From positions 284,501-348,500 of the forward strand of contig OY968762.1 in assembly GCA_963695225.1 (NCBI GenBank): 64,000 bases of DNA, given 5' to 3'. A program made the translations under genes and the position numbers. Origin of the DNA: Vulcanimicrobiota bacterium. GTDB taxonomy: Bacteria > Vulcanimicrobiota > Vulcanimicrobiia > Vulcanimicrobiales > Vulcanimicrobiaceae. Positions 4,567 to 52,227 of this stretch are shown piece after piece; position 1 is the first letter of the stretch; every line of letters starts with the position of its first letter. The notes below the pieces were generated by a model. The model saw only the letters and a program-made list of their open reading frames with translations. It made no database searches and was not told the DNA's origin.

Positions 4567-4580
4567 CGGCGGGCCGCTCG

Positions 4581-5960: not shown

Positions 5961-6005
5961 GCCGCGCAGAGGCCCCCGTCACCATTCATCCGTAGTACGT
6001 CATCG

Positions 6006-10870: not shown

Positions 10871-10873
10871 GCC

Positions 10874-12582: not shown

Positions 12583-12584
12583 AC

Positions 12585-26098: not shown

Positions 26099-26836
26099 AT
26101 GGCCAATCTGGAAACCTACCGTGCGCGCTTACTTCAGGCTCAGGAAGTTGTCAAAGCGCACTTCGGTGAGGTCGATGGTGTAGCTGCAGAACACGATGAA
26201 GGGCAGAGGACCGTCGCGCAATCCGAACTGTGGGTCGGCGTCCTTTCTGGGCGCCCGGAACTTCCGGCTCTGAACGCTTCCGTCGATGAATTGGACAGTG
26301 GCCTATATAACTTGGCATCCGGACAATACCGAGAAGCATACGGGAATCTGCGCCTCAGCCTAGAGCTGGGCATGGCAGCGATTCATTTCTCCGTGGAAGA
26401 GCTCGCACTTCGGCAGTGGCTGCGCGACAAGGCAGACATTATATGGTCCAACCTCGTTCAGGATAGCGACAAAGACAAATCCCTATTTACAACGGCCTTC
26501 GTAACAGCCTTCAACGATGATATGGGTGGGCGCTGGAATCAATATAGAACGATCGCAAACTCCCTGCATCGCGAGCTGTCTACTCACGTTCACGGTGCCG
26601 CCTCGACGCGCCGATCGACAAGGACACTATTGTTCAAACGCGAGATAGCGCTTGATTGGCTCACAAAATGTCAGAACGTGCATCTATCCTGGCAGTATAT
26701 TATGCTAGCCCGATATGCTGACCACCTCAGGCTGAACAAAGCGACACTTTCATCGCCCTTTAAGGACATGTTGCGAACGCTATTTGCGTCGATAGAGGAA
26801 ACGAACGGGCTCCTGGCAGAGCTGGGCTGTGTCTGA
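26099..26836 (+). CDS. hypothetical protein, possible HEPN-like domain
   Basis: 245 aa from ATG 26099, helical-looking, with an Rx4H element (RELSTH) in the C-terminal half. The stop overlaps the next gene's ATG (TGATG). First gene after the compositional shift. Confidence 0.5.
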   Translation: MANLETYRARLLQAQEVVKAHFGEVDGVAAEHDEGQRTVAQSELWVGVLSGRPELPALNASVDELDSGLYNLASGQYREAYGNLRLSLELGMAAIHFSVEELALRQWLRDKADIIWSNLVQDSDKDKSLFTTAFVTAFNDDMGGRWNQYRTIANSLHRELSTHVHGAASTRRSTRTLLFKREIALDWLTKCQNVHLSWQYIMLARYADHLRLNKATLSSPFKDMLRTLFASIEETNGLLAELGCV

Positions 26837-28416
26837 TGTCGGATTTCTATTATCGAACGGAAGATATTCGACCTGACAGCATCCTCAAGTACTTTGTCGA
26901 GATTGCTGAAGACCGAGACATCGTCGATGCTCTCAAGCGCAGAAACCCAACCATCCTCGTTGGCAGCCGTGGTACTGGGAAGAGCTTCCTTCTGCGCGTC
27001 GCGGAAGCAGAGCTAAATAGAGACCTGGATTCAGAAAAGGTCTTGGCCGTCTACTCTACGTTCACGATGAGCCCGCTTATCCAGACGACCGATAGGCATC
27101 AATTTACACACTGGATGCTTGCACGGCTTGCAGCCAATCTCGTGCGAGTAGTCAGGCGGCGGTATTCTTCGCTACCTGAGAGTATCAAGAAGATAGGCGG
27201 CATCGCCAATGAGTCAGGTCGGACAGCCATCGAGCGCATTGCGGAGTCGTACGAGGAGTCGTGGACGCACGGGACTGCAGCGCGGATCGATCCAAAAGGT
27301 ATCCCAACTGCGGACAGTTTTAAGGAGGCAGTGGAGGAAACGTGCATAACACTGGGCCTGCAGCGAGTAGCATTCTTTATCGATGAGGCGACTCACATAC
27401 TACTCGCAGAGCAGCAGCGCCAATTCTTTACACTATTTCGCGCCTTGCGTAGCCCGTACTTGACTTGCCACGCCGCAGTCTATCCTGGCGTCACAGCGTA
27501 CGGGGACGCTTTCCAACGGAGCCACGACGCGACATTTTTATATCTAAATAGGGACGTCCTTGCACGCGAGTATATTGATCGCATGCGAGAGGTTATCGAG
27601 AAGCAGGCGGACAGTGCCACGCTAGGTGCTATAGCACGTAACGGAAGCAGCTTTGATCTTCTCGCCTACGCGGCTTCTGGTAACCCTCGACTTCTGCTTA
27701 AGACGCTTAATAGGGCGCCCAAGCTAGGCGCGCACGAAGTTAACGGTGTCATAAGATCGTTCTATCGGAGTGAGTTCTGGAACGATCACACAACGCTGAG
27801 CAATAAGTACGCACCCTATAAGACTTTCATCGATTGGGGAAGAGACTTTCTCGAGAGAGATGTGTTGGGAAAGCTTCGGAACCGAAGCCAGGCTACATCG
27901 TACCTTTACGTTGACAAAAATAGACCTAAGGCAGTGGAGCAGGCCTTGGACTTGCTAGCATACACAGGAATCATCATAGAGCACGAGGCCGGGATGCGTG
28001 GCACGCGCAGCGGCGTTGGTACGCGCTATCTTGTGAACCTCGGCACGCTATTCGCGACTCTCTCCGTTCCAACGTCTGAAGGCATTCTTCTTGTAAAGGC
28101 CTTGTCGCCAAAAAGGTTCGCAGAGTACGGCGCTAATTACCCTGCCTTCCTAGAATTGCAAAAGGCAGCATCGGACCTGCCAAGCGAGTTGGACACGTCG
28201 CCCGTTCTCCGCGAGCAACTGCGGCGCAGTATTGACGTGTTGGATATAACCGAATGGCAGAAGTCAAAACTTCGCGAACTCCGTTTTACGACCTTAGGCG
28301 ACGTATTAAGGGCGACCGATCAGGAATTGCAGGAAGCCTATTATGTAGGCCAGATCCGGTCGCGCCAAATGAAAAATGCAGCCCAAGCGGCGGTCTTTGA
28401 GTACTTGACGGGATAG
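26836..28416 (+). CDS. ORC/Cdc6-like P-loop ATPase with C-terminal RpoA alpha-CTD-like helix-hairpin-helix
   Basis: GSRGTGKS Walker A, VAFFIDEA Walker B, a winged-helix-like middle region, and the C-terminal LRELRFTTLGDVLRATDQELQEAYYVGQIRSRQMKNA, which resembles the RNA polymerase alpha CTD HhH. Confidence 0.65.
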   Translation: MSDFYYRTEDIRPDSILKYFVEIAEDRDIVDALKRRNPTILVGSRGTGKSFLLRVAEAELNRDLDSEKVLAVYSTFTMSPLIQTTDRHQFTHWMLARLAANLVRVVRRRYSSLPESIKKIGGIANESGRTAIERIAESYEESWTHGTAARIDPKGIPTADSFKEAVEETCITLGLQRVAFFIDEATHILLAEQQRQFFTLFRALRSPYLTCHAAVYPGVTAYGDAFQRSHDATFLYLNRDVLAREYIDRMREVIEKQADSATLGAIARNGSSFDLLAYAASGNPRLLLKTLNRAPKLGAHEVNGVIRSFYRSEFWNDHTTLSNKYAPYKTFIDWGRDFLERDVLGKLRNRSQATSYLYVDKNRPKAVEQALDLLAYTGIIIEHEAGMRGTRSGVGTRYLVNLGTLFATLSVPTSEGILLVKALSPKRFAEYGANYPAFLELQKAASDLPSELDTSPVLREQLRRSIDVLDITEWQKSKLRELRFTTLGDVLRATDQELQEAYYVGQIRSRQMKNAAQAAVFEYLTG

Positions 28417-28782
28417 GGAGTAACGGCACGCCGTTTGCGATTCTCGCAACGGTCAACAGAAGTGTGTAATATTGTGCAACTATGTCGGCGTGGCGCGGAC
28501 GCCGTCTAGCGCCGCCAAGGGCGGGTACCCCCACGGAGCGCGGCCATCACGTTGTATCGTTTGGGGTTTACCTGAAATATCCAATCCATCGTCAATGCCT
28601 TTGCGCTCAGAGCGCTAACCGGTTCCTCCAGCGTGCCGCTTGCCCTCACGCATTCTCACGGCGTGCCCTTCCTCCAAAGTGCCCAATCTGCCAACCGCCC
28701 GACGGGCGTACCGCCGATAATCCTGAAATACGATAATTGTCTTGGAGGTCGGGGAACGTGCCAAAGTATACCCTAAGGGGAA

Positions 28783-28831
28783 AAGGCAGATGCTCGGCGC
28801 CGTTCAAGTGACGGGCGTACTCATCTGCCTT
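28783..28831 (+). promoter_or_regulatory. 10-bp perfect inverted repeat upstream of the helicase gene
   Basis: aaggcagatg (28783-28792) and catctgcctt (28822-28831) are separated by 29 nt, ~55 nt upstream of the GTG start at 28887. Confidence 0.3.
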
Positions 28832-28886
28832 AGTCGCCTCATGGCTAAGTTCTGGTCGAGGGGCGACGCTTGCCCAGGAGGATCGA

Positions 28887-31800
28887 GTGGCGGCGCTTGA
28901 AGAGCTAAAGACAGGGTCTACGGTGAGGGGAGTCCTCTCCAGCGGCGTCGCCACCGTCGTTAGTGTGCAGTGGTACGGTTCCGACGCGGTTGAGCTCACC
29001 TACAAAGACGCGACCGGAAAGGTCGGAAACGAGCTTCTCTACCGCGATAGGGAAGCCGACCTCGAGATCGTCGAGGAAGGGCGCCCGTGGAGCTTCGACG
29101 GAGATGGCGCCCTCTTTCGCCTCGTATCGGAGGCGCAACGCATTCACCTCGCCTATCTGTTCGATCCCGTTCTTGCTGTCCATACGTCGGTAGTAGAACC
29201 GCTGCCGCATCAGATTACCGCCGTCTATGAAAGCATGCTGCCGCGGCAACCACTGCGCTTTCTGCTGGCTGACGACCCGGGAGCCGGGAAGACCATCATG
29301 GCCGGCCTTCTCATTCGTGAACTGATCGCGCGAGGAGACCTGCAGCGATGCTTGATCGTCTGCCCAGGGAGCCTCGCGGAGCAGTGGCAAGACGAACTGT
29401 ACCGGCGCTTCAACCTGCCGTTCGAGATTCTCACGAACGACAAACTCGAGACCGCGCGCACAGGCAACTGGTTCATGGAAACAAATCTAGTGATTGCGCG
29501 GCTCGACAAGTTGTCACGCAATGAAGACCTACAGCAGAAGCTTCAGGCGCCGGATTGTCGGTGGGATCTCATCGTCTGCGATGAGGCGCATAAGATGTCC
29601 GCGACCTTCTTCGGCGGCGAGGTCAAGTACACAAAGCGTTATCGGCTTGGCCAACTCCTCTCTTCGCTAACACGGCATTTCCTGCTCATGACGGCCACGC
29701 CGCATAATGGCAAGGAGGAGGACTTCCAACTCTTCATGGCCCTGCTGGATGGCGATCGTTTTGAGGGCCGATTCCGCGACGGCGCCCATACTGCCGACGT
29801 GTCGGATCTCATGCGCCGCATGGTCAAAGAAAATCTTCTGACTTTCGACGCAAAGCCTCTGTTTCCGGAGCGCTGCGCATATACGGTCCCGTACAAACTG
29901 TCGGACGGCGAGGCCGCGCTCTACAAGGCGGTCACCGAGTACGTGCGTGAGGAGTTCAATCGTGCTGAGGCGCTGGAGAATGACAGGCGCGCTGGAACGG
30001 TCGGGTTCGCTCTCACGATCCTGCAAAGGCGGCTGGCCTCCTCACCGGAGGCGATCTACCAGTCTCTCCGCCGCCGCCGAGAACGCCTCGAAAGCCGGCT
30101 GCGGGAATTGGAGTTGCTTCAGCGCGGAGGCCCAACGGGCGACGCCATCAACGCGCACATCCCCGTATTGGATGACGAAGACGTTGACGACTTGGAAGAC
30201 GCGCCGGATGCGGAAGTCGAGAAAGTTGAGGAGGCGGTCCTTGACGCCGCGACTGCCGCCAGGTCGATCGGAGAGCTCCGGATTGAGATCGGGACGCTAA
30301 AGCGACTCGAGGAATTGGCTTTGTCGATTCGGCGCGGCGGCGACGACAAGAAATGGACTGAGCTCGCGAGCTTGCTCGGAGAGATCTTCAGGCCGGCGTC
30401 CATAATGAATGGTTCGGCGGGGCGGGCGCAGACTGACGATGCGGCCACGTTAGTGCCGCCCACAATCGCCCCATCTCCGCATCAGAAGATCGTCATCTTT
30501 ACCGAACATCGGGACACGCTTAACTACCTTCAGATCCGCATCGGAACGCTGCTGGGGCGATCGCAAGCCATCGTGACAATCCATGGCGGCATGGGACGCG
30601 AGGAACGCTTGAAGGCTCAGGAGGCATTCAAGCACGATCCCGAGGTTCAGGTCTTGCTCGCGACCGATGCGGCGGGCGAGGGCATCAACCTCCAACGCGC
30701 ACACCTGATGGTGAACTACGACCTCCCCTGGAATCCGAATCGGCTGGAACAGCGGTTTGGTCGCATTCATCGGATCGGCCAAACTGAGGTCTGTCACCTT
30801 TGGAACCTGGTCGCGGAAGAAACTCGCGAAGGGGACGTCTATCGCAAGCTGCTCGAAAAGCTCGAGCAGGCGCGTAACGCTTTGGGCGGACAGGTCTTCG
30901 ACGTACTGGGGAAATTGCAATTCGATGGTCGGCCGCTGCGCGAACTGCTCATCGAGGCCATTCGATACGGCGAGAAGCCCGAGGTGCGTGCGCGGCTTAC
31001 GCAAGTCCTTGAGAACGCCCTCGATAGAGAAGCCCTACGGACTCTTCTGGAAGACCACGCGCTGGTGCACGACGCCATGGACGCCTCGCGCGTCTTTCGG
31101 ATACGAGAAGACATGGAACGCGCGGAGGCACGCCGGCTACAGCCGCACTACGTCGAGTCATTCTTTCTGGAGGCATTTCGTCGCCTTGGTGGCGCTGTGC
31201 GGCAGCGCGAAGCAGGACGCTATGAGATCACGCACGTCCCAGCTGTCGTCCGAAGCCGCGACCGCCTTATTGGCGTGGGCGAGCCAGTGCTGCCGCGGTA
31301 CGAACGCATTGCCTTCGCGAAGGCGCTCGTAGCCCCTCAGGGGCAACCGTTGGCGGCCTTCGTCTGCCCGGGCCATCCGCTCCTTAGTTCCGTCATTGAT
31401 ATCACCCTTGAGCGTCACCGTGATCTATTACGACGTGGAGCCATACTTGTTGACGAACGAGACCTCGGCACAGAGCCGCGCATCCTTTTCTTTCTAGAAC
31501 ATGCTATCCAAGATACTGGAATAACGAAGAGCGGGGATCGGCGCATTGTATCGAAGCGCCTGCTCTTTGTCGAAATCGGCAAGGACGGCATTCCACGCCA
31601 TATTAACTACGCCCCATATCTCGACTACCGTCCGCTGGCGGAAAGCGAACCCGGTATCGACGCCATCCTAAGACGTCCCCAGTGCACCTGGATCACGCGT
31701 GACCTTGAGGCAAATGCGCAGGCGTATGCGATCGCAAAGGTGGTTCCTGAGCATCTCTCGGAGGTACGCGATCGCAAGATCGCGCTACTCGCCAAGACCG

Positions 31801-32483
31801 AGGCTGCGGTCAAGGACCGCCTCACGAAGGAAATCAACTACTGGGACTTTCGCGCGGAGCAGCTCAAGGAACAGGAGCGGGCCGGCAAAGCTAACGCAAG
31901 GCTGAACTCGGGTGAAGCGCGTAAGCGCGCGGACGACCTTCAGGCGCGACTCCAAAAGCGGCTCGAGGAGATCAAGCGAGAGCGCCAGCTAGCCCCGCTG
32001 CCGCCCGTCGTGCTCGGCGGGTTGCTGGTGGTGCCGATCGGACTGATCAGGGAAATCAGAGGGACTCCCCCAGTTACCTCGCAAGGCGCAGTTGATACGC
32101 AGGCTGCGGCTGCGAGGGCTCGCGAAATCGTTATGGAGATCGAGCGTGGGCTTGGCTTCGCGCCGGTCGACCGCGAATTTGAAAAGCTTGGCTACGACAT
32201 CGAAAGCGCCATCCCCGGGACTGGACGGCTTCGCTTCCTTGAAGTTAAAGGTCGCATAGCCGATGCCGACACGGTCACCGTAACTAAGAACGAAATTCTG
32301 TATTCGCTCAACAAGCCTGACGACTTCATCCTCGCCATGGTCGCTTTCGGCGCCGACGGGGCGCACGAGGTTCGTTACCTGCGCCGTCCGTTCCACGAAA
32401 AAGGCGTAACGACTGACTTTGCCGGGGCCACCGTCAATTTTCCCTTCGCGCAACTACTCGCTGAAGCGGCTCCACCGGCGTGA
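28887..32483 (+). CDS. SNF2-family helicase with C-terminal DUF3883-type (PD-(D/E)xK-like) domain
   Basis: AGGAGGA lies 5 nt upstream of the GTG start. DDPGAGKT (motif I) and VCDEAHKM (motif II), then helicase-C motifs ([25 protein letters not shown]). The C-terminus GYDIES...LRFLEVKG fits a D..ExK nuclease-like core. Confidence 0.85.
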
Positions 32484-32499
32484 GAAATGGTCTTCCCAT

Positions 32500-35400
32500 A
32501 TGATCGTAAAGACACGAAGAAAACTCATCGAAGTAGCCCTGCCGCTCGACGCAATCAACAAGGCTTGCGCGCGGGAGAAGTCGATCCGTCACGGGCATCC
32601 AAGCACACTGCATTTATGGTGGGCGAGGCGGCCGCTAGCGGCAGCGCGGGCAGTGATCTTCGCTCAAATGGTCGACGATCCGTCGGAATACGTAGATGTG
32701 CTCCGCGCGGACCCGAAGCTGCACCGTAAGGCGGAGACCGCGCTTAAAGCCCGACTGAAGCTTTGGGAGGAAGCCCTTTCCCTCGCCAAGAGGGCCGAGG
32801 GAACGGGGCTTTCGGTCCCGGAACCGGGGCCGGCACCGACCCTCGTCGATATGCTTGAAGATCTGGAGCGCCAGAGGCTCTTCCGAATAATCGAAGATCT
32901 CGTGGTCTGGGAAAACACGACTAACGAAATGGTTCTGCAGGCTGCTCGGGACGAGATCTGGGCAAGCTGGCGTCGCGCCTGCGCGGAGAATGTTGACAAC
33001 CCTCGCGCGAAGGAACTTTTTGATCGCAATGAGCTTCCGGCTTTCCATGACCCCTTCGCCGGTGGCGGTGCGCTGCCGCTCGAGGCGCAGCGGCTGGGGC
33101 TCGAGAGCTACGCCAGCGACCTGAACCCGGTAGCGGTGCTGATTAACAAAGCGATGATCGAGATCCCGCCGAGGTTCGCGGGGAAGCCGCCGGTGAATCC
33201 GGAGTCGCTCGGGGAGGAGTCTCTCATCTCCCGAGATTGGAAGGGCGCTCAGGGCCTCGCCGAGGACGTGCGCTATTACAGCCGGTGGATGCGCAACGAG
33301 GCTGAGAAGCGCATCGGCCACCTGTACCCTAAGGTCGAAGTCACCGCCGAGATGGCGAAGACGCGGCCGGACCTTAAGCCGTACCTTGGTCAAAAGCTCA
33401 CCGTGATAGCCTGGCTTTGGGCCCGCACGGTGAAGAGTCCGAACCCGGCATTCGCGCATGTGGACGTGCCGCTCGCCTCAACCTTTATGCTCTCAACCAA
33501 AGCGGGCAAGGAGGCGTATGTCGAGCCGGTGATTGAGAACGGCGGCTATGGTTTCACGGTAAAGGTTGGAAAGCCGAAGGATGTGGAGGCGGCGAAGATC
33601 GGCACGAAGCCGGGCAGCAGCGGGGGCAGCTTCCTCTGCTTGATGTCGGGGACGCCGATACCGTTTGAGTATCTTCGGTCGGAGGCCAAGGCTGGCCGCA
33701 TGGGCGCGAGGCTAATGGCTATCGTCGCAGAGGGCAACCGAGGCCGGGTCTATCTCGCGCCAACGGCGGAAGCAGAAGCGATCGCTTTGAGCGCGCACCC
33801 AACCGATGTGCCGGAGGCCGAATTGCCTCCGAAGGCGCTTGGTTTTCGTGTTCAGGAATACGGGATGACGCGCTGGCGCGACCTTTTCACTCTCCGCCAG
33901 CTTGCAGCATTGACGACTTTCGCTGACCTGGTGCAGGAGGCGCGCGAGCAGGTGCAGCGCGACGCAATTGCCGCCGGTCTTCCCGATGACGGCCGGCCAC
34001 TCCGCGATCGTGGCGCAGGCGCGACCGCCTACGTTGATGCAGTCGCGGTGTACCTTGCGTTCGCGCTCAGTAAAGTTACTGACCTTGCGAATACGATCGT
34101 AACGTGGCGTACTGACCGCGAATCATCATACCACCTGTTTTCGCGACAGGCGATCCCGATGAGTTGGGATTACTGCGAGCTTAACGCGCTCCTGAAGGGG
34201 ACTGGAAGTCTGATAGGTGCTGCTGATTGGACTGCCGAGAGCATCGAGGGCGTCGCTGCTGGTTATGGTTCACCTTTCGGTGATGCCCGCCAACATGATG
34301 CAACGCGGCAGGACACGTCGCGCGGCAAGGTGGTTTCCACAGACCCCCCTTACTACGACAACATCGGTTACGCAGATCTTTCCGACTTCTTTTATGTCTG
34401 GTTGCGGCGCTCGTTGCGACCGGTCTTTCCGGAGCTCTTCGCGACTCTCGCTGTTCCGAAAGCGGAAGAGCTGGTTGCTACGCCGTTTCGTCATGGCAGC
34501 AAGGAAAAGGCGGAGGCGTTCTTTCTCCACGGCATGACTCAGGCGATGCACCGCCTCGCCGAGCAGGCACATGCTGCGTTCCCGGTTACTATTTACTACG
34601 CTTTCAAGCAATCCGAAACCCAAACTGCGGAAGGCATCTCGAGCACGGGCTGGGAGACGTTCCTCGACGCAGTGATTAGCGCTGGATTCGCAATAACTGG
34701 CACGTGGCCGATGCGCACGGAACTTGGCAATCGCATGGTGGGCTCAGGCACAAACGCCCTCGCCTCCAGCATCGTGCTCGTCTGCCGCGCGCGCGCGGCG
34801 GACGCGCCCTCGGCGACGCGCCGCGAGTTTGTCGCCGCGCTCAGAGCCGAGCTGCCAGTAGCGCTCGCCCACTTGCAGCGCGGAAACATCGCGCCCGTGG
34901 ACCTCGCACAGGCGGCTATCGGCCCTGGCATGTCGGTTTACACCCGCTACATCAAGGTGCTCGACGCCGAAGGTAAGCCGCTTAGCGTGAGCGAGGCTTT
35001 GGCACTCATCAACCAGATTCTCGACGAGGCGCTGGCCGAACAGGAGGGCGACTTCGACGCCGATAGCCGCTGGGCGATCACTTGGTTCGAGCAGATGGGC
35101 TTTACAGAGGGCGAATACGGCGTGGCGGAACAGCTCTCAAAGTCCAAAAACACCAGCGTCGTCGGCATGGTCGAGGCTGGCATCCTCGAGTCGAAGCGCG
35201 GCAAGGTGCGACTACTTAAGCCCGACGAGCTGTCCTCCAACTTGAGCCCGGCCAAGGACTCACGCCTAAGCGCGTGGGCGATCGTCCACCACCTGGTCGG
35301 GGCGCTCGCGAGCCGAGGCGAGAGTGCAGCCGCGGGGCTCGTCGCCACGCTCGGAGCGAACGCCGAGATCGCCCGCGAGCTGGCCTACCGACTATATACC

Positions 35401-35544
35401 CTCTGCGAGCGCAAGAAACGGGCGGGGGAGGCGCTCGCCTACAACGGCCTCGTACAAAGCTGGCCGGAGATCGTTCGCATTGCGCGCGAGGGCGCAAAGC
35501 AACAGCCTGCGCAAGCCGGCTTATTTGAAGAAGCGGAGAGCTGA
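32500..35544 (+). CDS. DUF1156-type DNA methyltransferase (amino-MTase, DPPY)
   Basis: The N-terminal [19 protein letters not shown] is the DUF1156 signature. DPFAGGG is the AdoMet loop and [12 protein letters not shown] is catalytic motif IV. 16 nt downstream of the helicase gene. Confidence 0.85.
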
Positions 35545-35547
35545 TTC

Positions 35548-38500
35548 ATGGCCGTAACCAACCAAGAGCGCGTAGGCAAGGCGATGGAGCTGCTCCGAGC
35601 GGGGCTCGCACCTTTCGTCGAGCGCGAAGTGCAGTCTGCCATCAAGGCTGGAACCGTTCGCATGGACGCGGTGCGCCGTTTTGCTGAAGACCCGATCCTA
35701 AGCAACAAGCCGATCGAGCAATGGGACGTTGCTGGCCTACTGAAGCTAATGTGGGAAACCTGGAACGACGTATTCAGGCGCACGTTGGGCTTTGCCGAAC
35801 GCAGTTTGGTAAGCGAGTTGCGTGATGTTCGCAACAAATGGGCGCATCAGGAGCCGTTTTCCAGCGATGATACGGACCGCGCCCTCGACTCGATGAATCG
35901 CCTGCTGGCGGCCATCTCCGCGCCACAAGCCGACGAGGTCGGCAAGATGAAGATGGAATTGCGCCGCCTTGTTTTCGACGAGCAGGTACGGTCTGAAAAG
36001 CGCAGGGTCGGGGGCTCGCTGATCGAGCCGGCGTCGGCCGGCAACTTAAGACCGTGGCGCGAAGTCGTAACCCCGCACGCCGACGTTGCCAGTGGTGGAT
36101 ATCAGCAGGCCGAGTTCGCGGCCGACCTCTGGCAAGTACATCTCGGCGAGGGGAGCGACGAATACCGGAAACCAGCCGAGTTCTTCCGTCGTACCTTCTT
36201 GACGGAAAGCCTTGCGCGGCTGCTGGTCGGCGCAGTGCAGCGGCTTTCCGGCCGAGGCGGCGACCCCGTAGTGCAACTCCAAACGAACTTCGGCGGCGGC
36301 AAGACGCACTCAATGCTAGCGCTGTATCACCTCTTTGGCGGCGCTGCGCCGGGCGAAATGCCAGGCATCGACGCGGTGCTCGGCGAGGCGGGCGTAAAGG
36401 CCCTACCCAAAGCCAAGCGAGTCGTGCTTGTTGGCAACAAGATCTCTCCGGGCAATCCCGTCAAGAAACCCGACGGCACGATCGTGCGCACGCTCTGGGG
36501 GGAGCTTGCCTATCAACTGGGCGGCAAAGAGGCTTTCGCGCGAATAGCCAAGGACGACGAGAGCGCGACGAACCCAGGCGACCTGCTGCGCGAATTGTTT
36601 GTAGAGTATGGCCCTTGTCTCGTGCTGGTGGACGAATGGGTCGCCTATGCGCGCCAGCTTCACGATCAAAGTGACCTACCGGCTGGTGGATTCGAGACGC
36701 AGTTCACCTTCGCGCAGGCGCTGACTGAATCGGCGAAGCTTGCCAAGAACTGCCTTCTCGTTATCTCGTTGCCGGCGTCAGATACAACTGGGTCGCCCCA
36801 CACGCAAGCCGACGACGTGGAAGTCGGAGGCGTTCGGGGGCGCGAGGCGCTTGATCGCCTCCGAAACGTCGTGGGACGTGTCGAGGCGTCGTGGCGACCA
36901 GCTACCGCAGAAGAAGGTTTCGAAATCGTCCGGCGCCGCCTGTTCGAGTCGATGGCCGCCGAGATGTTCAAACAGCGCGATCTCACTGCGCGCGCCTTCG
37001 GCGATCTCTATCAAGCGCAGGCTGCGGAGTTTCCGCCGGAATGCCGCAGCGCGGACTACGAGAAACGAATTAAAGCTGCCTATCCCATCCATCCGGAGAT
37101 ATTCGACCGCCTCTACACGGATTGGTCGACGCTCGTAAAGTTTCAGCGCACCCGTGGCGTTCTGCGACTGATGGCCGCCGTGATCCACAGCCTGTGGGAG
37201 AAGGGCGACCGCAGCCCGCTGATTATGCCTTCGACGATTCCGATTGATGATCCACGCATACAGTTCGAGCTCACGAGGTATCTCTCTGATAACTGGGTGC
37301 CGATCATCGAAAAGGACGTTGACGGCCCCAACTCGTTGCCGCTGCGGATCGACGCCGAAGTGCCGAATCTTGGTAAGCTGTCAGCGACGCGACGCGTAGC
37401 GCGCACGATCTACCTCGGCTCCGCACCCACCGCAACCGCAGCCCATCGAGGCCTAGAAGACCGCCGGGTGAAGCTCGGCTGCGTTATGCCGGGAGAACCG
37501 CCGGCGGTTTTCGGTGATGCGTTGCGACGTCTTGCAGCTGCCGCCACTTATCTCTACCAGGATGGCCCACGGGTTTGGTACTCTACGCAGCCGACCGTCA
37601 CGAAGCTGGCGGAAGACCGCGCCGAGCAGTTGAAGCGCGATCCCGACAAAGTTGGCGCTGAGCTCGACCTGCGCGTTCGCAATGATCTGAAGCGAAGCGG
37701 CGACTTTTCACGCATCCACGCTCTTCCGCGATCTGGCGCCGACGTGCCTGACGATCTCGATGCGCGTCTCGTTGTGCTGCCGGCCGAGTTTCCGTACAGT
37801 AAAGATAGTGGGAACTCAGCCGAGTCGGCTGCGAAAGCAGTCCTCGAAGCACGTGGAAACACGCCGCGCCTCTATCAGAACACTCTTGTGTTCCTCGCCG
37901 CCGACAAGGTGCGACTTCAGGACCTCGACGAGGCCTTGCGCAGATTCCTGGCCTGGTCTTCCATCGTGGCCGAGACGGTTACGCTTAATCTCGACCCACA
38001 CCAAGCTCGCCAGGCGGAGGTGCAAAAGAAGACGGCGGATGACACGGTGAACGCACGGTTGCCGGAAACGTATCAGTGGCTCCTTGTGCCCGAGCAATCC
38101 ACACCGCAGTCTCCCGTCACGTGGCAGGCGTTGCGGCTAACGGGCGGCGATGCGCTCGCGGCTCGCGCCAGCAAGAAGGTTCGCAGCGACGAACTGCTGA
38201 TCTCAAGCCTCGGCTCCACAATCCTGCGCAAGCACCTGGATGACGTCCCATTGTGGCGTGGCGACTCCGTGGCAGTTAAGCAACTCGTGGACGATTTCGC
38301 TCGTTACCTGTACCTTCCGCGCCTTGCCGGGCCCGAGGTTCTCGCCCGTGCGATCGCTGATGGCGTTGCCCTTCTCACTTGGCGCACGGATACGTTCGGC
38401 TACGCGGAAAGCTATGTTGACGCAGCCGGGCGATATCGGGGGCTGCGAGGCGGCCTCGCCATGAACATTCTGCCCGACAACCCTGGGGTACTGGTCAAAC

Positions 38501-38871
38501 CGGACATCGCGGCCCGACAGCTGGACGCCGAGACTCCGCGACCCAGCATTTCACCGATAATACCGAAGCCCGAAGGGCCGGTGCCTGGAGGTGCAGCTGA
38601 AGGCGGTGTAGCGACAGAGATCTCCTCGGCCAAGCAGCTCAAGAGATTTCATGGCTCGGTGCAGGTCGATTCCACGCGAGTCGGGCGCGACGCTGGACGA
38701 ATCGCCGACGAGGTTATCGCGCATCTCGTGGGTCAAGTGGGCGCAGAGGTTAAGGTGAGCATCGAAATCGAGGCTTGGCTCCCAAACGGGGCGAGCGATC
38801 ACCTAGTGCGTACCGTTACTGAGAATAGCCGGACTCTTAAGTTTGACGCGCATGGGTTCGAAATTGAATGA
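35548..38871 (+). CDS. Swt1-like HEPN domain fused to DUF499-type P-loop ATPase
   Basis: The N-terminal ~120 aa contain LRDVRNKWAHQ (Rx4H HEPN motif). FGGGKTHS Walker A and LVLVDEW Walker B follow, with a long C-terminal region. Starts 3 nt after the MTase stop. Confidence 0.8.
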   Translation: MAVTNQERVGKAMELLRAGLAPFVEREVQSAIKAGTVRMDAVRRFAEDPILSNKPIEQWDVAGLLKLMWETWNDVFRRTLGFAERSLVSELRDVRNKWAHQEPFSSDDTDRALDSMNRLLAAISAPQADEVGKMKMELRRLVFDEQVRSEKRRVGGSLIEPASAGNLRPWREVVTPHADVASGGYQQAEFAADLWQVHLGEGSDEYRKPAEFFRRTFLTESLARLLVGAVQRLSGRGGDPVVQLQTNFGGGKTHSMLALYHLFGGAAPGEMPGIDAVLGEAGVKALPKAKRVVLVGNKISPGNPVKKPDGTIVRTLWGELAYQLGGKEAFARIAKDDESATNPGDLLRELFVEYGPCLVLVDEWVAYARQLHDQSDLPAGGFETQFTFAQALTESAKLAKNCLLVISLPASDTTGSPHTQADDVEVGGVRGREALDRLRNVVGRVEASWRPATAEEGFEIVRRRLFESMAAEMFKQRDLTARAFGDLYQAQAAEFPPECRSADYEKRIKAAYPIHPEIFDRLYTDWSTLVKFQRTRGVLRLMAAVIHSLWEKGDRSPLIMPSTIPIDDPRIQFELTRYLSDNWVPIIEKDVDGPNSLPLRIDAEVPNLGKLSATRRVARTIYLGSAPTATAAHRGLEDRRVKLGCVMPGEPPAVFGDALRRLAAAATYLYQDGPRVWYSTQPTVTKLAEDRAEQLKRDPDKVGAELDLRVRNDLKRSGDFSRIHALPRSGADVPDDLDARLVVLPAEFPYSKDSGNSAESAAKAVLEARGNTPRLYQNTLVFLAADKVRLQDLDEALRRFLAWSSIVAETVTLNLDPHQARQAEVQKKTADDTVNARLPETYQWLLVPEQSTPQSPVTWQALRLTGGDALAARASKKVRSDELLISSLGSTILRKHLDDVPLWRGDSVAVKQLVDDFARYLYLPRLAGPEVLARAIADGVALLTWRTDTFGYAESYVDAAGRYRGLRGGLAMNILPDNPGVLVKPDIAARQLDAETPRPSISPIIPKPEGPVPGGAAEGGVATEISSAKQLKRFHGSVQVDSTRVGRDAGRIADEVIAHLVGQVGAEVKVSIEIEAWLPNGASDHLVRTVTENSRTLKFDAHGFEIE

Positions 38872-39342: not shown

Positions 39343-39966
39343 TCACGCCGGCATTCTACTTTGCTCACGATAGTTCGGGCAATCGAGCAGTCTCAGGAAG
39401 CGGCGAAATGATCTGGAGTTTCGTGCCATGGTCAGCGGATCAGCTATCTTAAGAAGTCTCGCAGCGTCAGCGACCTTATCGTACTGCCGGTTCTGATTCC
39501 TTGCGCTTGCTGCAGCCTTTAGCACCCGAGTTGCGTCTGCGTTATCAGCGCTGCCCGTTAGCGTTCTAATTGCTGCTTTGGAGAGCGGTCCCAGCACCTG
39601 CTGTAGCGCCTCTGGATCGGCGGCAAGCCAATTCTCAAACTGGTTCACCTTAATAACGGCGCTAACGGAGCACGGTAGCGAGAATGTGAGGCCCTCGAGT
39701 CTCGCTGTGAGTTCTGCAGCCCACGCGACGCAGCAGCAATCGCGACCATCCAGGTCGAGAAGAACGATAACGTGGCGAGCACCCTTACGCAGAAGCGAAT
39801 CCTGCACCGTCTTCCGCACACGGGCGGCCAATTGGCCGGCTGGTGCATGTGGCTGCAGGTCGGCCTTTGCAATCCCGACGAGCTGATGAGGCACTTTGAT
39901 TCGAGGGACAAGAAGAGGAAGCGCGTGATATTCCGATACACCGTCCACGATTAGCCCTGTGCCCAT
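39343..39966 (-). CDS. DUF4276-like protein (Toprim-like features)
   Basis: From ATG 39966: LIVDGVSEYHALP (conserved Glu), VLLDLDGRD (DxD) and FENWLAADPEAL fit DUF4276. It lies immediately downstream of the ABC-type ATPase gene. Confidence 0.6.
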   Translation of the reverse strand: MGTGLIVDGVSEYHALPLLVPRIKVPHQLVGIAKADLQPHAPAGQLAARVRKTVQDSLLRKGARHVIVLLDLDGRDCCCVAWAAELTARLEGLTFSLPCSVSAVIKVNQFENWLAADPEALQQVLGPLSKAAIRTLTGSADNADATRVLKAAASARNQNRQYDKVADAARLLKIADPLTMARNSRSFRRFLRLLDCPNYREQSRMPA

Positions 39967-39967
39967 T

Positions 39968-41281
39968 CTATTGAGAATCCTTCTCCAAGAGCTCTGGCTG
40001 CGGCGGAACTGCGACACCTAGGACACCGCTGTCTAGGAATCCAAATGTGGTCGCCTCGCCATTCGCCCAGGCTGGCAAAAAGCTAGGATCTAACTCGTTC
40101 AGCGGCTTAATGTTGGTTTCGCCGGATGACCGCCAGATGATCATGACGTTTGCCGGGTCGACGTGGTCAATAACTATGGGTGAGTGGGTTGTTAAGATCA
40201 CCTGCTTCATCTTAGAGACGCGAGTACACGCGTCGACAAGGACACGAACTATCCAAGGATGCACAGAATTCTCTGGCTCCTCTAAGAAAATCACACTCGA
40301 GCCGGGATCAAACATTGCTACAAAGAGGGCCAGAGCTTGCACGGTGCCGTCAGAGATTTCGTCGACTGACCATGGCCTGCCAACGTTTCGCTCGTGAAAT
40401 GAGAGGCCGAGCCGGCGAGACGGAGTGTAAGATACCTCGATCTCGTCAAGACTCGGTAGAATTGCTTGCATTAGGCTCACGATCTCACGCCACGCAGCCT
40501 TATGTCTCTTCTGCAGCGTGTCGATGACAGCCGGAAGGTTTCCGCCATGTTTGCTAAGTTGAGGCTTCGGCCCCGGAACACCCTCATCACGCGAGATGTT
40601 CGGGTGAATTTGGAAGACTCTAATTTCGCCCATTACATTAGAGAAAGCAATCAGCGGCAGCGCGAAGCGACCGAGCGTTGTAATGAACAGCTCGGAACTG
40701 TTGAGAATACGGTCCGAGCGAGATGCAAAGTACTGGACATCTTGCACGTCAAGAAGCTGAGATCGTACGACGCGATCCGGCCGCTTCTTGATATCCGGCC
40801 GTTTTTTGATATAGTCGATAACGATCTTATCCTCAGAGCGATGTGCTCTAAGAAGGGGCGTATTCTTCTCTTCGAACTCATGTGAGATTTCAAGACTCTC
40901 GCTAACCACGTAGTATTCGGCTCGAATTGCAGCTCCCTTAGCAAGAAAGCTAAAGGAATGAACTATTGTAACCCAATCGCCGTTATCGGGTCGAATTGCC
41001 CGGGGAATATCATTCGATTCGAGGCGTACAGAGACGGTGAATTCAATTGGCCGCTTGGTGCGCCTCATTTTGCGGTGCGCGATGTTCTCGTAGCCACCCT
41101 TCGACGCTACGGCGATTTCGAGTCCGAAGCGATAGACGACCGCAAGAAACTCAAAGCAGTCACTTAAGTTCGTCTTGCCAGATGCATTTGGCCCTGCAAA
41201 GACTGTGAACTGCTTTGGCGAGAACTCGACGTCTCGTAAGGATTTATAGTTGCTGATCTTAAGGTGCTGAAGTTGAATGAT
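39968..41281 (-). CDS. ABC/SMC-type (AAA_15/21-like) ATPase
   Basis: My translation of the minus strand upstream of the track ORF continues in frame: (I)IQLQHLKISNYKSLRDVEFSPKQFTVFAGPNASGKTNLSDCFEFL. This supplies the Walker A that the 39968..41068 track ORF lacks. C-terminal ISDGT, IFLEEPENSVHP and TTHSP motifs are present. There is no ATG, GTG or TTG between the upstream stop and the P-loop. Confidence 0.7.
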   Translation of the reverse strand: MIQLQHLKISNYKSLRDVEFSPKQFTVFAGPNASGKTNLSDCFEFLAVVYRFGLEIAVASKGGYENIAHRKMRRTKRPIEFTVSVRLESNDIPRAIRPDNGDWVTIVHSFSFLAKGAAIRAEYYVVSESLEISHEFEEKNTPLLRAHRSEDKIVIDYIKKRPDIKKRPDRVVRSQLLDVQDVQYFASRSDRILNSSELFITTLGRFALPLIAFSNVMGEIRVFQIHPNISRDEGVPGPKPQLSKHGGNLPAVIDTLQKRHKAAWREIVSLMQAILPSLDEIEVSYTPSRRLGLSFHERNVGRPWSVDEISDGTVQALALFVAMFDPGSSVIFLEEPENSVHPWIVRVLVDACTRVSKMKQVILTTHSPIVIDHVDPANVMIIWRSSGETNIKPLNELDPSFLPAWANGEATTFGFLDSGVLGVAVPPQPELLEKDSQ

Positions 41282-41695: not shown

Positions 41696-43574
41696 CTAGT
41701 CCGCGTTGCACTTCAGAGGAATGTCCAGCCGAAGCTGCCGGCATCCGGCGGAGATTAGCGCATGGTAGGTAGCGTCGAGATCGGCTAGCGGCGGGACGAA
41801 GATCATCATCCCGTCGCGCCCACGCGTCATGAGGACGCGGTAGCTATTGAGCCTTAGCTGTCGAGCGTCGTGGGCCTTGCTCCGAACGACGGATGTGGCC
41901 CATTCTCTGCCGTTCCACACGAGGTCGGTATCCCAGCCAACGATTGGGAAATCGAGCTCGAGGCCTTGGCACGAGAACTCCGTCGCGACTTCGAGCATCT
42001 GGCAGCACGATTTCAGCGACGACGCGGGTTCGTTATACCAGGGACCGGGACGGAAGCCGCGAGTCGCTTGGAACGATGTGTTCATTCCGAAGAGCGGGAG
42101 ATGCTTCGCCTTCGATGAGCCGAGAAGCCCGAAGCGCCTTTCTTCCTCGCCCTCGTAACGAGCGCGAACGTAGCGCTTCGCTTCCTCAAGATCGCGTGTG
42201 ACATAGAGATCGAATGACGCGCGCTGCATCGAATCGGCGATGGACGCCGCCTCCGAGAGCTGCCCGTCGAGAACATGCTTCACCCAGTCGTGAAGGCCGC
42301 CGGCGGCATGCGATCGCAGCGTCACCTTGAGCTCGAGCGCATCGTCGACGACGACCTTCTGACCACCAAACACGGAAGCCACGTGCTGGGGGCAATGGAT
42401 CGTCCAATCGCCGCCGCTTGCCTTTATGGCGTCGCTCCAGAGCCGAAGGCCGCCCTCCTCGCCCAAGTGGATCTCCTGGCCCTCGCCGATCAGGCCGACG
42501 AGCATCGCCCAATCCGGCGTCCTCATGCCCAGCTTCACGAAGTCCTCGGGCTCCGAGAGTGGGTGCCCCCGTTTGCCCATCACGCGCTCGCTATCCCAGG
42601 CGCGCTGTGCCTCATCGTAGACCCAGATGTGTTCGGTCGGCAGCTTCTTTGAGGCGCCGCCGTAGCGAACGAGAAAACCATGCACGTCTTGAACGAAGAT
42701 CCGATTCTTGAGGGCGTGTTGGAGGACGTCGACCAGCGGGCCGTTGCCGGAGAGAAACACTGCCGGGCCGTTCCGCTTCGTCGTCCGAGAAGCGCGTCAA
42801 GTACACGAACTGAAGGCCAACGAGCGTCTTCCCGGCGCCGGGTACGCCGGTGACGAGCGCGAGGTGACGCTCCCCGTTCCTCTGCGCTTGGCCGGCGATG
42901 CGCTGAAGCGACTCCAGTGCCTCTGGGATTCCGGCACTCGACGCCCGGCGGATCTGCGGCAGTGCCTCATGTTCAAATATCCGGCGAGCAGCGGCGACCA
43001 ATGCCGGCAGAGGCTCGTAGTCGGCTTCGACCCATTGCGAAATGCTTGCCCGCGCGAGTTCGTGATTGTCCGGCACGGACTGAAGATACGAGGCGAGGGT
43101 CTTGCCTCCAAGGATGGTGACGTTATCGACATCCTGTGCGGGCAGGGACGCATCGTCGAGGGCCAGGATCGGCCGGACGTCGAGCTCGTGCGATCCGGCA
43201 TGATATTCGCGGAGATCGCGCGCATACGCGTCGACTTGATCGACGTCGCTCTGCTCGGCGTACTGCCGCCCTTTGAACTCGATCACATGCGCCGCCGGCC
43301 CCGTCAGGAGGACAACGTCCGGCCGCCGCCCGCGTTCCCGTGGTAGTTCGTACTCGAAAACGAGCCCCCAGTGCCGCACGCCCGGCCGTTGTTCGACGAG
43401 CTCATGGCATTCGCGCTTGAGGACCCTGATAGAATCGGCCCACGCCCGGATCTGCCCATCGCCGAGCGGCAGATTGAGATCGTGAATCAGCGCCGAGAAG
43501 TCCTTTTGCAAAGTAGCCGGCGTCTCTGCCAGGAACTCATCGATCGTACCGTACCAGCCGCAACCGTTATTGAT
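41696..43574 (-). pseudogene. DUF2075-family ATPase/helicase-like protein, interrupted by a 1-nt frameshift
   Basis: Track ORFs 42612..43511 (VTGVPGAGKT... FVYLTRFSDDEAERP) and 41696..42760 (FLSGNGPLVDVLQ...) are two halves of one DUF2075-type protein. The frames join at the run gccgggcc (42762-42769). Confidence 0.7.
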
Positions 43575-46334: not shown

Positions 46335-47536
46335 CGCGCGAACTCCGCGAGCAGCTCGAGGGCGCGCCCGGCCGTGGCCGTGTCCTCGTTGCGATCGATC
46401 TGGTCGAGCAGGTGCGCGGCGATGCCTTGGAACTCGCCGGGTGGGAAGGCCGCCAGCCACGCTTCGCGCGTCTGCGGCCGCGCCTCGATCGCGCGTTCGA
46501 AGGCGATGAAGAAGAAGCGCGCGCCAAGTTCGGCTTCGAGGGCGGCGAGCCGCTCTGCGGCGGCCGGCGTGCACAAGCCTCGGACGTGGATGCGCGCGAG
46601 CGTCCGCTCCGGCGCTTCGAGCGCGCGCAGGTCGCCCGCGAGGCGATCGACCGAGGCTTCATCCGAGATCTCGTGCGTGCGTTCGATCCAGCGGAGCTCC
46701 CCGACCGGGATGCGCTCGATCGACGGCCGCGCGCCGCGTGCGGCGATCGTCACGATCGAGACCGTTCCGCAATCGCGATCGGCGAAGCTGGACTGTTCCG
46801 GCGTCCCGCAGTAGGCGATCTGCGCGGCGCCGTCGTCGTAGCTCTGGGCGCTGTGCCAGTGGCCGAGCGCGAGGTAATCGAGGCGCCCGCGGGAGGCCGC
46901 GTCCAGGGGAATCGGAAACGAGCCGCGCTGCTCGCCTTCCGATGTCTCGATCGTGCCGGGGATCTGCAGCTCGCCGTGCGCGAGGCCGACGCGGATCGCT
47001 TCCGGCGCCGTGTCGTGGCCGGCATACCATGCGGTCGGGTCCTCGGTGCTGTACTTCTTCAGGCAGGGAGATGCGAGCAGGACGCCGCCGCCGGGGAGGT
47101 CGTAGGCGCGCGGCTCGTGGATCGTCACGACGTTCGCTCCGTCCAGCGTCTGCCAGGCCGCGCCGGCGTACGGTCCGTCGAGCCCGCCCGGATCGTGATT
47201 GCCGGGGAGGATGTAGACCGGCATCTTCGCGCGCCGCAGCGCGCCCGCTACTTGCCCGATCTCGGCGGCGTGCGGCGTGCGCTCTTCGAACTGATCCCCG
47301 GCGACGAGGATGAAGTCGACCTGCTGCTGGTTGGCGATGTCGATGATCCGCTCGACGGTCCTCCGCCGCGCCTCGCGCACGGCGCCGGCCTTGTCGCCGG
47401 CTTGCAAGCACTTCATCCCGATTTGCCAGTCCGCGGTATGCAAGAACTTCAGGGGTGATCCTCCGTTGCCGACGCATGCACTGTTCCCGGGCTCTATATC
47501 GTGGCCGCGGGCGTGCCGTGCATCACCGTACGCCAC
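46331..47536 (-). CDS. SbcD/Mre11-like metallophosphoesterase
   Basis: HTADWQIG, GDQFE, GNHD and GHWH calcineurin-like phosphoesterase motifs. The functional start may be the CTG at 47452, with GGAGGA 6 nt upstream, rather than the ATG at 47536. Confidence 0.8.
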   Translation of the reverse strand: MAYGDARHARGHDIEPGNSACVGNGGSPLKFLHTADWQIGMKCLQAGDKAGAVREARRRTVERIIDIANQQQVDFILVAGDQFEERTPHAAEIGQVAGALRRAKMPVYILPGNHDPGGLDGPYAGAAWQTLDGANVVTIHEPRAYDLPGGGVLLASPCLKKYSTEDPTAWYAGHDTAPEAIRVGLAHGELQIPGTIETSEGEQRGSFPIPLDAASRGRLDYLALGHWHSAQSYDDGAAQIAYCGTPEQSSFADRDCGTVSIVTIAARGARPSIERIPVGELRWIERTHEISDEASVDRLAGDLRALEAPERTLARIHVRGLCTPAAAERLAALEAELGARFFFIAFERAIEARPQTREAWLAAFPPGEFQGIAAHLLDQIDRNEDTATAGRALELLAEFAR

Positions 47537-51933: not shown

Positions 51934-52227
51934 CCAACGATTGCGACAAACATCACTCAGCCCGAGGCGTGCGGTTTTCAACTGCCCACGGGTGTGCGGT
52001 TTTGAGCTGCCCCCTGAGGCGGTCCATCTCTGGAAGAAGAAATACGGGACGCTCGGCACGCCCGAGCGTCGCGAGATGAACGAGCTGCGTGACGAGAACA
52101 CGCGACTCAAGCGTCTGGTAGCCGATCTCACCCTCGACAAGCTGATGCTCCAGGATGTGCTCTCAAGGAAGCTCTGAAGCCGGCCAAGCAGCGCGTCCTA
52201 GCCGGCGAACTCCAAGCAGAGTACGGC

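Follow-up and report, generated by a model that had tools for sequence, protein, structure and literature searches.

The window, a stretch of 64,000 nucleotides, encodes a three-gene operon that we assign to Hma. With a probability of about 0.8, it would be a complete and probably functional Type-1 DUF499-centred BREX-related system in the common HEPN-fused form, carried on a horizontally acquired defence island and acting by a four-step mechanism. The operon is an intact, ordinary copy of a widespread and already known three-gene anti-phage system, and its discovery value is small, since thousands of taxa are already on record with this system, of which it is a textbook example. The features of the locus are as follows:

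hmaA: 28887..32483, + strand, SNF2-family helicase with a C-terminal NOV_C/DUF3883 PD-(D/E)xK nuclease, 1198 aa
hmaB: 32500..35544, + strand, DUF1156 N6-adenine-type DNA methyltransferase, 1014 aa
hmaC: 35548..38871, + strand, DUF499 ORC/Cdc6-type AAA+ ATPase with an N-terminal Swt1-like HEPN fusion (approximately residues 1-150), 1107 aa
HEPN-encoding part of hmaC: 35548..36042, + strand, with the R-x4-H motif RNKWAH at residues 95-100
Intergenic region 5' of hmaA: 28417..28886, no strand assigned, 470 nt

The open reading frames of the three co-directional genes lie at these coordinates, and the gaps between them are 16 nt (hmaA-hmaB) and 3 nt (hmaB-hmaC). The first-pass annotation had described three large co-directional genes in a single compact operon, and the gene sizes, the gaps and the layout were all verified. 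The hmaA gene starts with GTG, and AGGAGG is found ahead of the start codon. The reading frame of hmaB is open from a TTG at 32419, whereas the ATG at 32500 gives the protein of 1014 aa and the 16-nt gap. The ATG agrees with independent gene calls for locus L084, whose numbering differs from that of the window by a constant 25894: hmaA, called there at 2993-6589, falls on 28887-32483, and the start of the following gene, 6606, falls on 32500. The promoter of the operon presumably lies within 28417..28886. Consensus scans of this region returned no + strand promoter, with scores not above the shuffled expectation, and neither the promoter nor the terminator scans exceeded the shuffled expectation, so they are uninformative on the operon boundaries. 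Pfam and NCBIfam gave no match for an open reading frame of 84 aa at 28482-28736.

The assignment to Hma, already suggested in the first-pass annotation, is borne out by full-length matches to the PADLOC HmaA, HmaB and HmaC profiles, with scores well outside what chance would give. Searches for the domains named in that annotation recovered SNF2, NOV_C (=DUF3883), DUF1156, HEPN_Swt1 and DUF499, and each of the listed motifs was located in the translated proteins. HmaA matches its PADLOC profile over residues 1-1195 (E=0, 1688 bits), and Pfam identifies SNF2-rel_dom (3e-16), Helicase_C (6e-24) and NOV_C (5e-16, residues 1077-1158). The motifs DDPGAGKT, DEAH and EVK are located at residues 129, 232 and 1119, respectively; the Walker A GKT at 134-136 and the DEAH box at 232-235 are invariant in 28-32 relatives, as is the nuclease tetrad D1104/E1119/K1121/E1136 in 40 of 40. 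The tetrad probably corresponds to the catalytic residues D1084/E1104/K1106/E1121 of the Halomonas protein (PMC11232893), as judged from the motif and the same K-to-E spacing of 15 rather than from an alignment. A sequence search of the PDB gave RapA as the closest solved relative of HmaA. Residues 1-95 and 700-1070 are covered by no Pfam match; the published description of the Type-1 helicase places a TUDOR domain at its N-terminus and an inactive REase in its interior (PMC12839542).

HmaB matches its PADLOC profile with E=0 and 1518 bits, and Pfam gives DUF1156 (1.5e-27) and a weak match to MethyltransfD12. Counted from the ATG, motif I (FAGGG) is located at residue 186 and motif IV (DPPY) at residue 615, separated by an insert of about 430 aa. 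The DPPY motif is invariant in 59 of 59 relatives and FAGGG is present in 45-46 of 47. In tblastn alignments of the loci, the per-position identity drops to 27-41% over residues ~526-600 of the insert, as compared to 70-90% elsewhere in the protein. This variable patch sits between motifs I and IV, as does the TRD insert of Type-1 methyltransferases. Neither HmaB nor HmaC had a match in the sequence search of the PDB.

For HmaC, the PADLOC profile (E=0, 1160 bits) covers residues 166-1105 only, and the Pfam matches are HEPN_Swt1 (1.3e-37, residues 11-124) and DUF499 (6e-27). The corresponding RefSeq name is 'Swt1 family HEPN domain-containing protein'. Besides RNKWAH at residue 95, the protein contains GGGKTH at 249 and LVLVDEW at 358; R95 and H100, the Walker A GGGKT at 249-253 and the Walker B DE at 362-363 are invariant in 80 of 80 loci. 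The AlphaFold2 model of the full-length protein, built from a shallow alignment of sequences with 79-93% identity, is poor (pLDDT 56, pTM 0.36), with an all-helical HEPN region at a pLDDT of ~70-93. A Foldseek search of the model against the PDB gave generic RadA/AAA+ P-loop matches only, none of them at E<=0.001. The DUF499 ATPase has been described with a C-terminal RRM/ferredoxin-like domain (PMC12839542). When modelled separately, residues 1028-1107 reached a pLDDT of 74 with no clear beta-alpha-beta pattern, and Foldseek found no match to this 80-residue model in the PDB better than E=8. The models are too weak for judging the domain arrangement or the pairing of HEPN domains.

The architecture is not new. 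It was described in 2013 by Anantharaman et al. as the 'Ava_2192' family, with the HEPN fusion listed in Table 1 (PMC3710099); a COG1743/DUF499/SNF2-nuclease operon was described in the EVE paper of 2020; the name Hma was given in 2021 (Payne et al., PADLOC), and a NAR paper of 2026 reclassified the system under the name 'Type-1 BREX-related system' (PMC12839542). The operon has the same three genes, order and domains as these systems, full-length profile matches and relatives with 69-93% identity, and it shows no difference of substance from them, the present copy being among the compact ones. Of the hallmarks of Type-1, we found a DUF499 ATPase with intact Walker A and B motifs, a DUF1156 methyltransferase with motifs I and IV, and a helicase with a NOV_C nuclease. 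We also found the N-terminal Swt1/Abi2-family HEPN with the conserved R-x4-6-H that marks the HEPN-fused variant. Reading the operon as an R-M-like defence system, as had been proposed, agrees with the published view (PMC3710099, PMC7641849, PMC12839542). The HEPN-ATPase fusion and an abortive RNA arm had been taken for a novelty, but both were in print in 2013 and restated in 2026; the fusion occurs in 1370 of 2446 Type-1 taxa and has been proposed to serve as a last-resort suicide RNase (PMC12839542). HEPN and DUF499 are both present in all of the 120 best HmaC homologues and in 109 of 128 diverse complete representatives, in which RNxWAH is mostly kept. The GC content of the HEPN segment, 60.6%, is the same as that of the remaining operon, so that the fusion was not a recent local event.

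The statement that no mechanistic or structural description exists is outdated, given the nickase activity of HmaA (PMC11232893) and the biochemistry and structures of MANTIS (bioRxiv 10.64898/2026.09.23.753747). The Hma system of Halomonas meridiana (Liu et al. 2024) is the only experimentally tested Type-1 system (PMC11232893). In that study, p-hmaA sufficed to protect E. coli from T4, E1104A reduced the defence and mutating all four residues of the nuclease tetrad removed it, a C-terminal fragment of HmaA containing NOV_C nicked plasmid DNA with Mn2+, and overexpression of HmaB left T4 sensitivity unchanged (PMC11232893). The architecture of HmaA and the D/E/K/E tetrad, mapped by motif and spacing, are common to the Halomonas and the present system. 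In contrast, the Halomonas HmaC is ~958 aa by its coordinates with no HEPN reported, whereas the present HmaC is HEPN-fused, and the Halomonas operon is interrupted by Septu and others, whereas the present one is compact. The reach of the Halomonas test is limited by the heterologous host and by the modified DNA of T4.

MANTIS, also named Gao_RL or Type-2 BR, has a homologous DUF499 ATPase, a homologous methyltransferase with FxGxG and DPPY, and a helicase-nuclease effector. Its mechanism, which serves as our template, was described biochemically and structurally in September 2026: the DUF499 ATPase MtsA forms dimers via the ATPase domains at its N-terminus and loads the methyltransferase, which hemimethylates asymmetric 6-bp sites, and restriction is directed by the methyltransferase and requires both the ATPase-methyltransferase complex and the helicase-nuclease (bioRxiv 10.64898/2026.09.23.753747). 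[quoted passage not shown] At the present locus, no PLD match was found in HmaA and no Pfam match in the small flanking open reading frames, and a fourth gene would not fit into the gaps of 16 and 3 nt between the hma genes. The Type-2 NCBIfam models scored 101-167 bits against cutoffs of 1000-1200, and the Type-2 PADLOC profiles 73-132 bits as compared to 1160-1688 bits for the Hma profiles. Based on the missing PLD and MtsB gene and on scores far below the cutoffs, we rejected membership in Type-2.

The ATPase, methyltransferase and helicase cores are also homologous to BrxC, BrxXI and BrxHII of Type-3 BREX (PMC12839542), and HmaA matches the PADLOC BrxHII profiles at ~300 bits. This homology of all three proteins would be expected if the system blocked phage DNA replication in the manner of classical BREX, without cutting DNA and with the nuclease and HEPN as mere accessories. 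We consider such a mode of action highly improbable. Among the genes of the locus and its neighbours we found no PglZ, BrxA, BrxB (or BrxB-like), BrxF or BrxL; Type-1 is set apart by the added active PD-(D/E)xK nuclease on the helicase (PMC12839542), and mutation of the nuclease abolishes the Halomonas defence. Further differences from Type-3 BREX are the added active nuclease of HmaA, the N-terminal DUF1156 of HmaB and an HmaC of the DUF499 rather than the DUF6079 type. Type-3 membership was rejected on the lack of a PglZ or iSTAND/BrxB-like gene and on the intact nuclease residues of the helicase, since the Type-3 helicase lacks a nuclease.

In the mechanism that we propose for Hma, HmaB, a DPPY-type amino-methyltransferase, would mark host DNA at a short sequence, with its specificity provided by the variable insert (step 1). 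HmaC, the homologue of BrxC and MtsA, would spend ATP on loading the methyltransferase onto DNA and recognise unmodified sites (step 2). Unmodified foreign DNA would then license HmaA, the SNF2 motor of which would translocate while the PD-(D/E)xK nuclease nicks or cuts (step 3). Finally, the HEPN of HmaC would act as a second, RNA-cutting effector that shuts down translation if DNA restriction fails, probably triggered by dimerisation or oligomerisation of the ATPase domains on target DNA, which would pair two HEPN domains (step 4). Steps 1 and 2 are carried over by homology from the sister Type-2 system MANTIS, the only one in which they have been demonstrated, and loading may differ in Type-1, which lacks the MtsB that MANTIS needs for methylation. 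Step 3 is transferred from the Halomonas homologue, where it was demonstrated for HmaA alone. For step 4, we infer the role of the HEPN: that of a suicide effector is a published hypothesis (PMC12839542), to which the dimerisation trigger is added here.

Since the Halomonas HmaA works without HmaB and HmaC and overexpression of HmaB was ineffective (PMC11232893), R-M-like coupling is hypothetical for Type-1. HmaA might instead be a stand-alone effector, with HmaB and HmaC either restraining it or forming an independent second defence. Also in line with such independence, hmaB is found nearby in only 85% of HmaA homologues and hmaC in 81% (PMC11232893), and among 40 loci of close relatives, 35 carry additional genes between hmaA and hmaB, the remaining five being compact; compact copies without embedded genes made up ~37% in Payne's survey. 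Nevertheless, we regard a stand-alone HmaA as improbable. The A-B-C order is held on the same strand in loci from many bacterial phyla, at 69-80% identity, which supports the earlier claim of a conserved three-gene unit; the catalytic DPPY of HmaB is invariant, and in MANTIS restriction needs all components and methylation needs the ATPase. None of the catalytic residues in the four enzymatic domains varies among the 28-80 relatives compared.

More specifically, we tentatively suggest, at somewhat below even odds, that the HEPN of HmaC is an RNase that is kept off in the resting ATPase and switched on only by ATP- and DNA-dependent AAA+ dimerisation pairing two HEPN domains, so that one sensor would feed both restriction by HmaA and abortive RNA degradation. 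In both MtsA and BrxC, the dimer is formed by the N-terminal ATPase domains. To demonstrate either the HEPN suicide effector or its dimerisation-gated activation would be a first. The HEPN could also be a nucleic-acid sensor, a structural dimerisation module or a cutter of specific phage transcripts that spares the host, which we hold to be rather unlikely. Non-catalytic HEPN binders exist and eukaryotic Swt1 has been inferred to lack activity (PMC3710099); many Type-1 systems do without the domain (1076 of 2446 taxa, PMC12839542; 19 of 128 representatives), and the searchable literature yielded no RNase assay or other experimental test of the HEPN in any HEPN-DUF499 protein. However, R95 and H100 of the R-x4-H motif are invariant in all 80 close relatives, RNxWAH is kept in a large majority of representatives with <50% identity, which argues for catalysis, and Anantharaman et al. 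(PMC3710099) list the HEPN-AAA+ family as 'Active' within a system that they class as R-M-like. The practical value of the present operon is that it represents Type-1 with the HEPN, free of embedded genes and with intact catalytic residues. Being compact and intact, it is a convenient construct for studying RNA cleavage by the HEPN, the need for the ATPase in methylation and function without an MtsB-like co-factor.

The operon probably lies on a horizontally acquired defence island, as supported by its GC content of 60-62% against ~68% in the flanks, by the nearby IS21 and IS3 elements and by plasmid copies, the HEPN form of HmaC being present on 142 plasmid records. The two-gene module upstream had been considered a possible part of the system. 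None of the 80 related loci contains it, the pair recurs in two other contexts with no hma gene called in the 8-kb flanks shown, and its GC content (~53%) differs from that of the operon; we therefore rejected it as a part of Hma and consider it an independent cassette. A HEC-01 pair, which is commonly embedded, here adjoins the operon on the opposite strand. The flanks at ~68% GC encode a PASTA kinase, RuvB and SpoIID.

An ORF scan of the window identified three long, co-directional open reading frames on the plus strand:

28887-32483, plus strand: hmaA, 1198 aa, GTG start
32419/32500-35544, plus strand: hmaB, 1014 aa from the ATG at 32500
35548-38871, plus strand: hmaC, 1107 aa

The hmaA stop codon is separated from the hmaB ATG at 32500 by 16 nt, and hmaB from hmaC by 3 nt. 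This hmaB start is also the gene call, at a constant offset, on the Logan contig L084, which bears the same upstream ATPase gene and a 1198-aa hmaA. A Shine-Dalgarno sequence, AGGAGG, is located 5 nt upstream of the hmaA GTG. Every motif listed in the first-pass annotation was recovered in the three proteins, which contain DDPGAGKT (residue 129), DEAH (232) and EVK (1119) in HmaA, FAGGG (186) and DPPY (615, both counted from the ATG) in HmaB, and RNKWAH (95), GGGKTH (249) and LVLVDEW (358) in HmaC. Its domain calls were each borne out by Pfam profile searches, with matches to SNF2-rel_dom, Helicase_C and NOV_C (the current name of DUF3883) in HmaA, to DUF1156 and weakly to a D12-class methyltransferase in HmaB, and to HEPN_Swt1 (E 1.3e-37, residues 11-124) and DUF499 in HmaC. 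The name Hma, also given there, is correct, as the PADLOC profiles HmaA, HmaB and HmaC match end to end with 1688, 1518 and 1160 bits, respectively. The PADLOC HmaC profile starts at residue 166, so that the HEPN domain falls outside that model.

The HEPN-fused architecture was reported in 2013 by Anantharaman et al. (PMC3710099, the "Ava_2192" family), who classed its HEPN domain as "Active" and the system as restriction-modification-like. The operon of COG1743, DUF499 and SWI2/SNF2-nuclease genes was described as a predicted restriction system by Bell et al. 2020 and named Hma by Payne et al. 2021, with 1638 instances in 26 phyla. It was later re-classified as a Type-1 DUF499-centred BREX-related system, homologous to BrxC, BrxXI and BrxHII of Type-3 BREX (NAR 2026, PMC12839542). 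The same paper counts the HEPN fusion in 1370 of 2446 taxa and proposes a last-resort suicide RNase. All 120 top-ranking homologues of HmaC in the database (78-100% identity) contain HEPN and DUF499 (PF18731 and PF04465), and several sources already use the name "Swt1 family HEPN domain-containing protein" for such homologues. The HEPN fusion is not unusual, and the abortive RNA arm put forward as new in the first-pass annotation is not new: Hma, the version of it with a fused HEPN domain and the idea of an abortive RNase have each been described before, which makes the operon in the window an ordinary finding. The literature searches turned up no experiments on a HEPN domain from a DUF499 protein.

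The putative catalytic residues were invariant among the related loci compared. This was the case for GKT and DEAH of HmaA (28-32 of 28-32 loci), the nuclease residues D1104/E1119/K1121/E1136 of HmaA (40/40), DPPY of HmaB (59/59), and both the HEPN residues R95 and H100 and the Walker A and B motifs of HmaC (80/80). The nuclease tetrad was matched to D1084/E1104/K1106/E1121 of Halomonas HmaA by the motif and an identical K-to-E spacing of 15, not by alignment. HmaA from Halomonas is sufficient to protect E. coli from T4, and its NOV_C domain introduces nicks into plasmid DNA in the presence of Mn2+; the E1104A substitution weakens defence and a quadruple nuclease mutant loses it. HmaB overexpression left T4 sensitivity unchanged (Liu et al. 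2024, PMC11232893).

Most of HmaB shares 70-90% identity with its relatives, but identity falls to 27-41% at residues ~526-600 (window ~34075-34300), between motifs I and IV. A target-recognition insert is expected between these two methyltransferase motifs. At four related loci (L031, L032, L044 and L070), HmaB shares only 42-45% identity, although the adjoining HmaA and HmaC remain at 69-77%. The variable patch and the divergent HmaB proteins beside conserved HmaA and HmaC fit with diversifying sequence specificity, and suggest that a specificity module may have been exchanged or diversified.

A mechanism has been presented for the Type-2 sister system MANTIS/Gao_RL in a September 2026 preprint, in which the DUF499 ATPase MtsA forms an asymmetric dimer via its N-terminal ATPase domains, and MtsA and MtsB load the methyltransferase MtsC, leading to hemimethylation of asymmetric 6-bp sites (bioRxiv 10.64898/2026.09.23.753747). 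No published test of a MANTIS-like coupling of methylation and restriction in Type-1 systems was found in the literature searched. The best-supported reading of Hma is a restriction-modification-like circuit with an extra RNA arm. HmaB would methylate host sites. HmaC would spend ATP on loading HmaB and on recognising unmodified DNA. Both methylation and loading are carried over from MANTIS by homology. HmaA would then translocate and nick or cut the DNA, the only step demonstrated in a Type-1 system (Halomonas, PMC11232893). Alternatively, the three proteins may not be tightly coupled; the self-sufficiency of Halomonas HmaA speaks against tight coupling, as does the absence of MtsB from Type-1 Hma, in contrast to MANTIS. 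In the circuit with an RNA arm, the HEPN domain would cut RNA as a back-up. HEPN RNases generally need two domains per active site. The ATPase domains of MtsA and BrxC, which are homologous to that of HmaC, dimerise, making it plausible that an ATP- or DNA-driven dimerisation of HmaC would switch on the HEPN RNase.

Scanning a single genome for each species yielded at least 589 confirmed relatives. The best 80 of these show 69-80% identity, and by record title their hosts include Alpha-, Beta- and Gammaproteobacteria, Chloroflexota, Gemmatimonadota, Acidobacteriota, Planctomycetota, Bacteroidota, Chlorobiaceae, Deinococcota, Verrucomicrobiales, Myxococcota and Nitrospira, among others. The order and strand of hmaA-hmaB-hmaC are kept in the related loci, in support of the proposed conserved three-gene unit. 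Direct adjacency was observed for hmaB and hmaC in 43/74 related loci and for hmaA and hmaB in just 5/40; a fully compact operon, as in the window, was found in 5/40, in line with the published ~63-66% of Hma loci that hold embedded genes.

Searched exhaustively with HMMER, 1.84 billion cluster representatives gave 11241 relatives at E<=0.001, of which 2469 reached E<=1e-30. Among the best 150 matches, 109 of 128 apparently complete proteins contain HEPN, mostly with RNxWAH-type motifs, in a ranking that favours proteins with HEPN, as the domain was part of the query. The other 19 are without HEPN; 16 of them are about 894-966 aa long, most of which start at the segment corresponding to residue ~168 of HmaC in the window. 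The HEPN form of HmaC was present on 142 plasmid records and on no phage record. Carriers include pVV8 of Thermus thermophilus HB8 and a Meiothermus plasmid, the latter with the operon in the same compact form. On pVV8 (NC_017767.1, 4233-25469; L086), HEPN-HmaC shares 44% identity, the hma genes are interspersed with genes for Fic, HicAB and HTH proteins, and the helicase is encoded on the opposite strand. The model organism T. thermophilus HB8 could supply thermostable material amenable to structural study. A PDB sequence search returned no relatives of HmaB or HmaC.

Upstream of the operon lies a two-gene cassette:

26099-28416, plus strand: a 245-aa protein abutting a 526-aa ORC/Cdc6-like AAA ATPase (PF24389)

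No recognisable domain was detected in the 245-aa protein, and the cassette gave no PADLOC match and only a weak NCBIfam "DS41_1_antiphage" match (29 bits, below the cutoff of 370). We rejected the cassette as part of Hma, since it is missing from all 80 related hma loci (the best 80 of at least 589), has a GC content of ~53% as compared to 60-62% in the hma operon, and recurs in two other contexts whose displayed 8-kb flanks contain no called hma gene. In one, a metagenome contig (L081/L082), the pair adjoins an MZB/PLD/UvrD cluster; in the other, Ectopseudomonas mendocina (L083), its neighbours are ribonucleotide reductase genes. The pair may form a defence cassette of its own that is so far uncharacterised.

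The GC content of the hma operon is lower than in its flanks (~68%), and the operon sits in a defence island that includes the HEC-01 pair, the helicase, the SMC-like ATPase and the IS21 and IS3 elements listed here with their neighbours:

39343-41068, minus strand: HEC-01 pair, a DUF4276 protein and an AAA_21 ABC ATPase
41696-43511, minus strand: PDC-S41-like DUF2075/Schlafen-group-3 helicase, two overlapping ORFs
43614-46574, minus strand: SMC/Rad50-like ATPase, 986 aa
46659-47477, minus strand: 272-aa protein
47937-49202, plus strand: trypsin-like protease
49604-53043 and 53071-55575: IS21 (istA/istB) and an IS3-family transposase, then an 834-aa AAA_16/TPR STAND-like NTPase

The HEC-01 pair, a defence candidate found embedded within Hma loci by Payne et al., is here located just outside the operon, convergent with hmaC; weak HEC-01A-like genes occur between hmaB and hmaC in four related loci (L007, L036, L060 and L078). 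Between the Walker A (GVPGAGKT) and Walker B (VYDEAQ) motifs of the helicase gene, a single frameshift splits the reading frame, which points to either a pseudogene or a sequencing error. The SMC-like ATPase has a host-like GC content of 69% and matches the LmuB, PtuA and GajA profiles only at its N-terminal P-loop. Together with the adjoining 272-aa protein, which had no Pfam or PADLOC match, and the nearby protease, it may constitute another defence module. The mobile elements lie within a second low-GC patch (53-63%). The host backbone at 8202-13619, with ~68% GC, encodes a PASTA-domain Ser/Thr kinase, RuvB and a SpoIID-domain protein.
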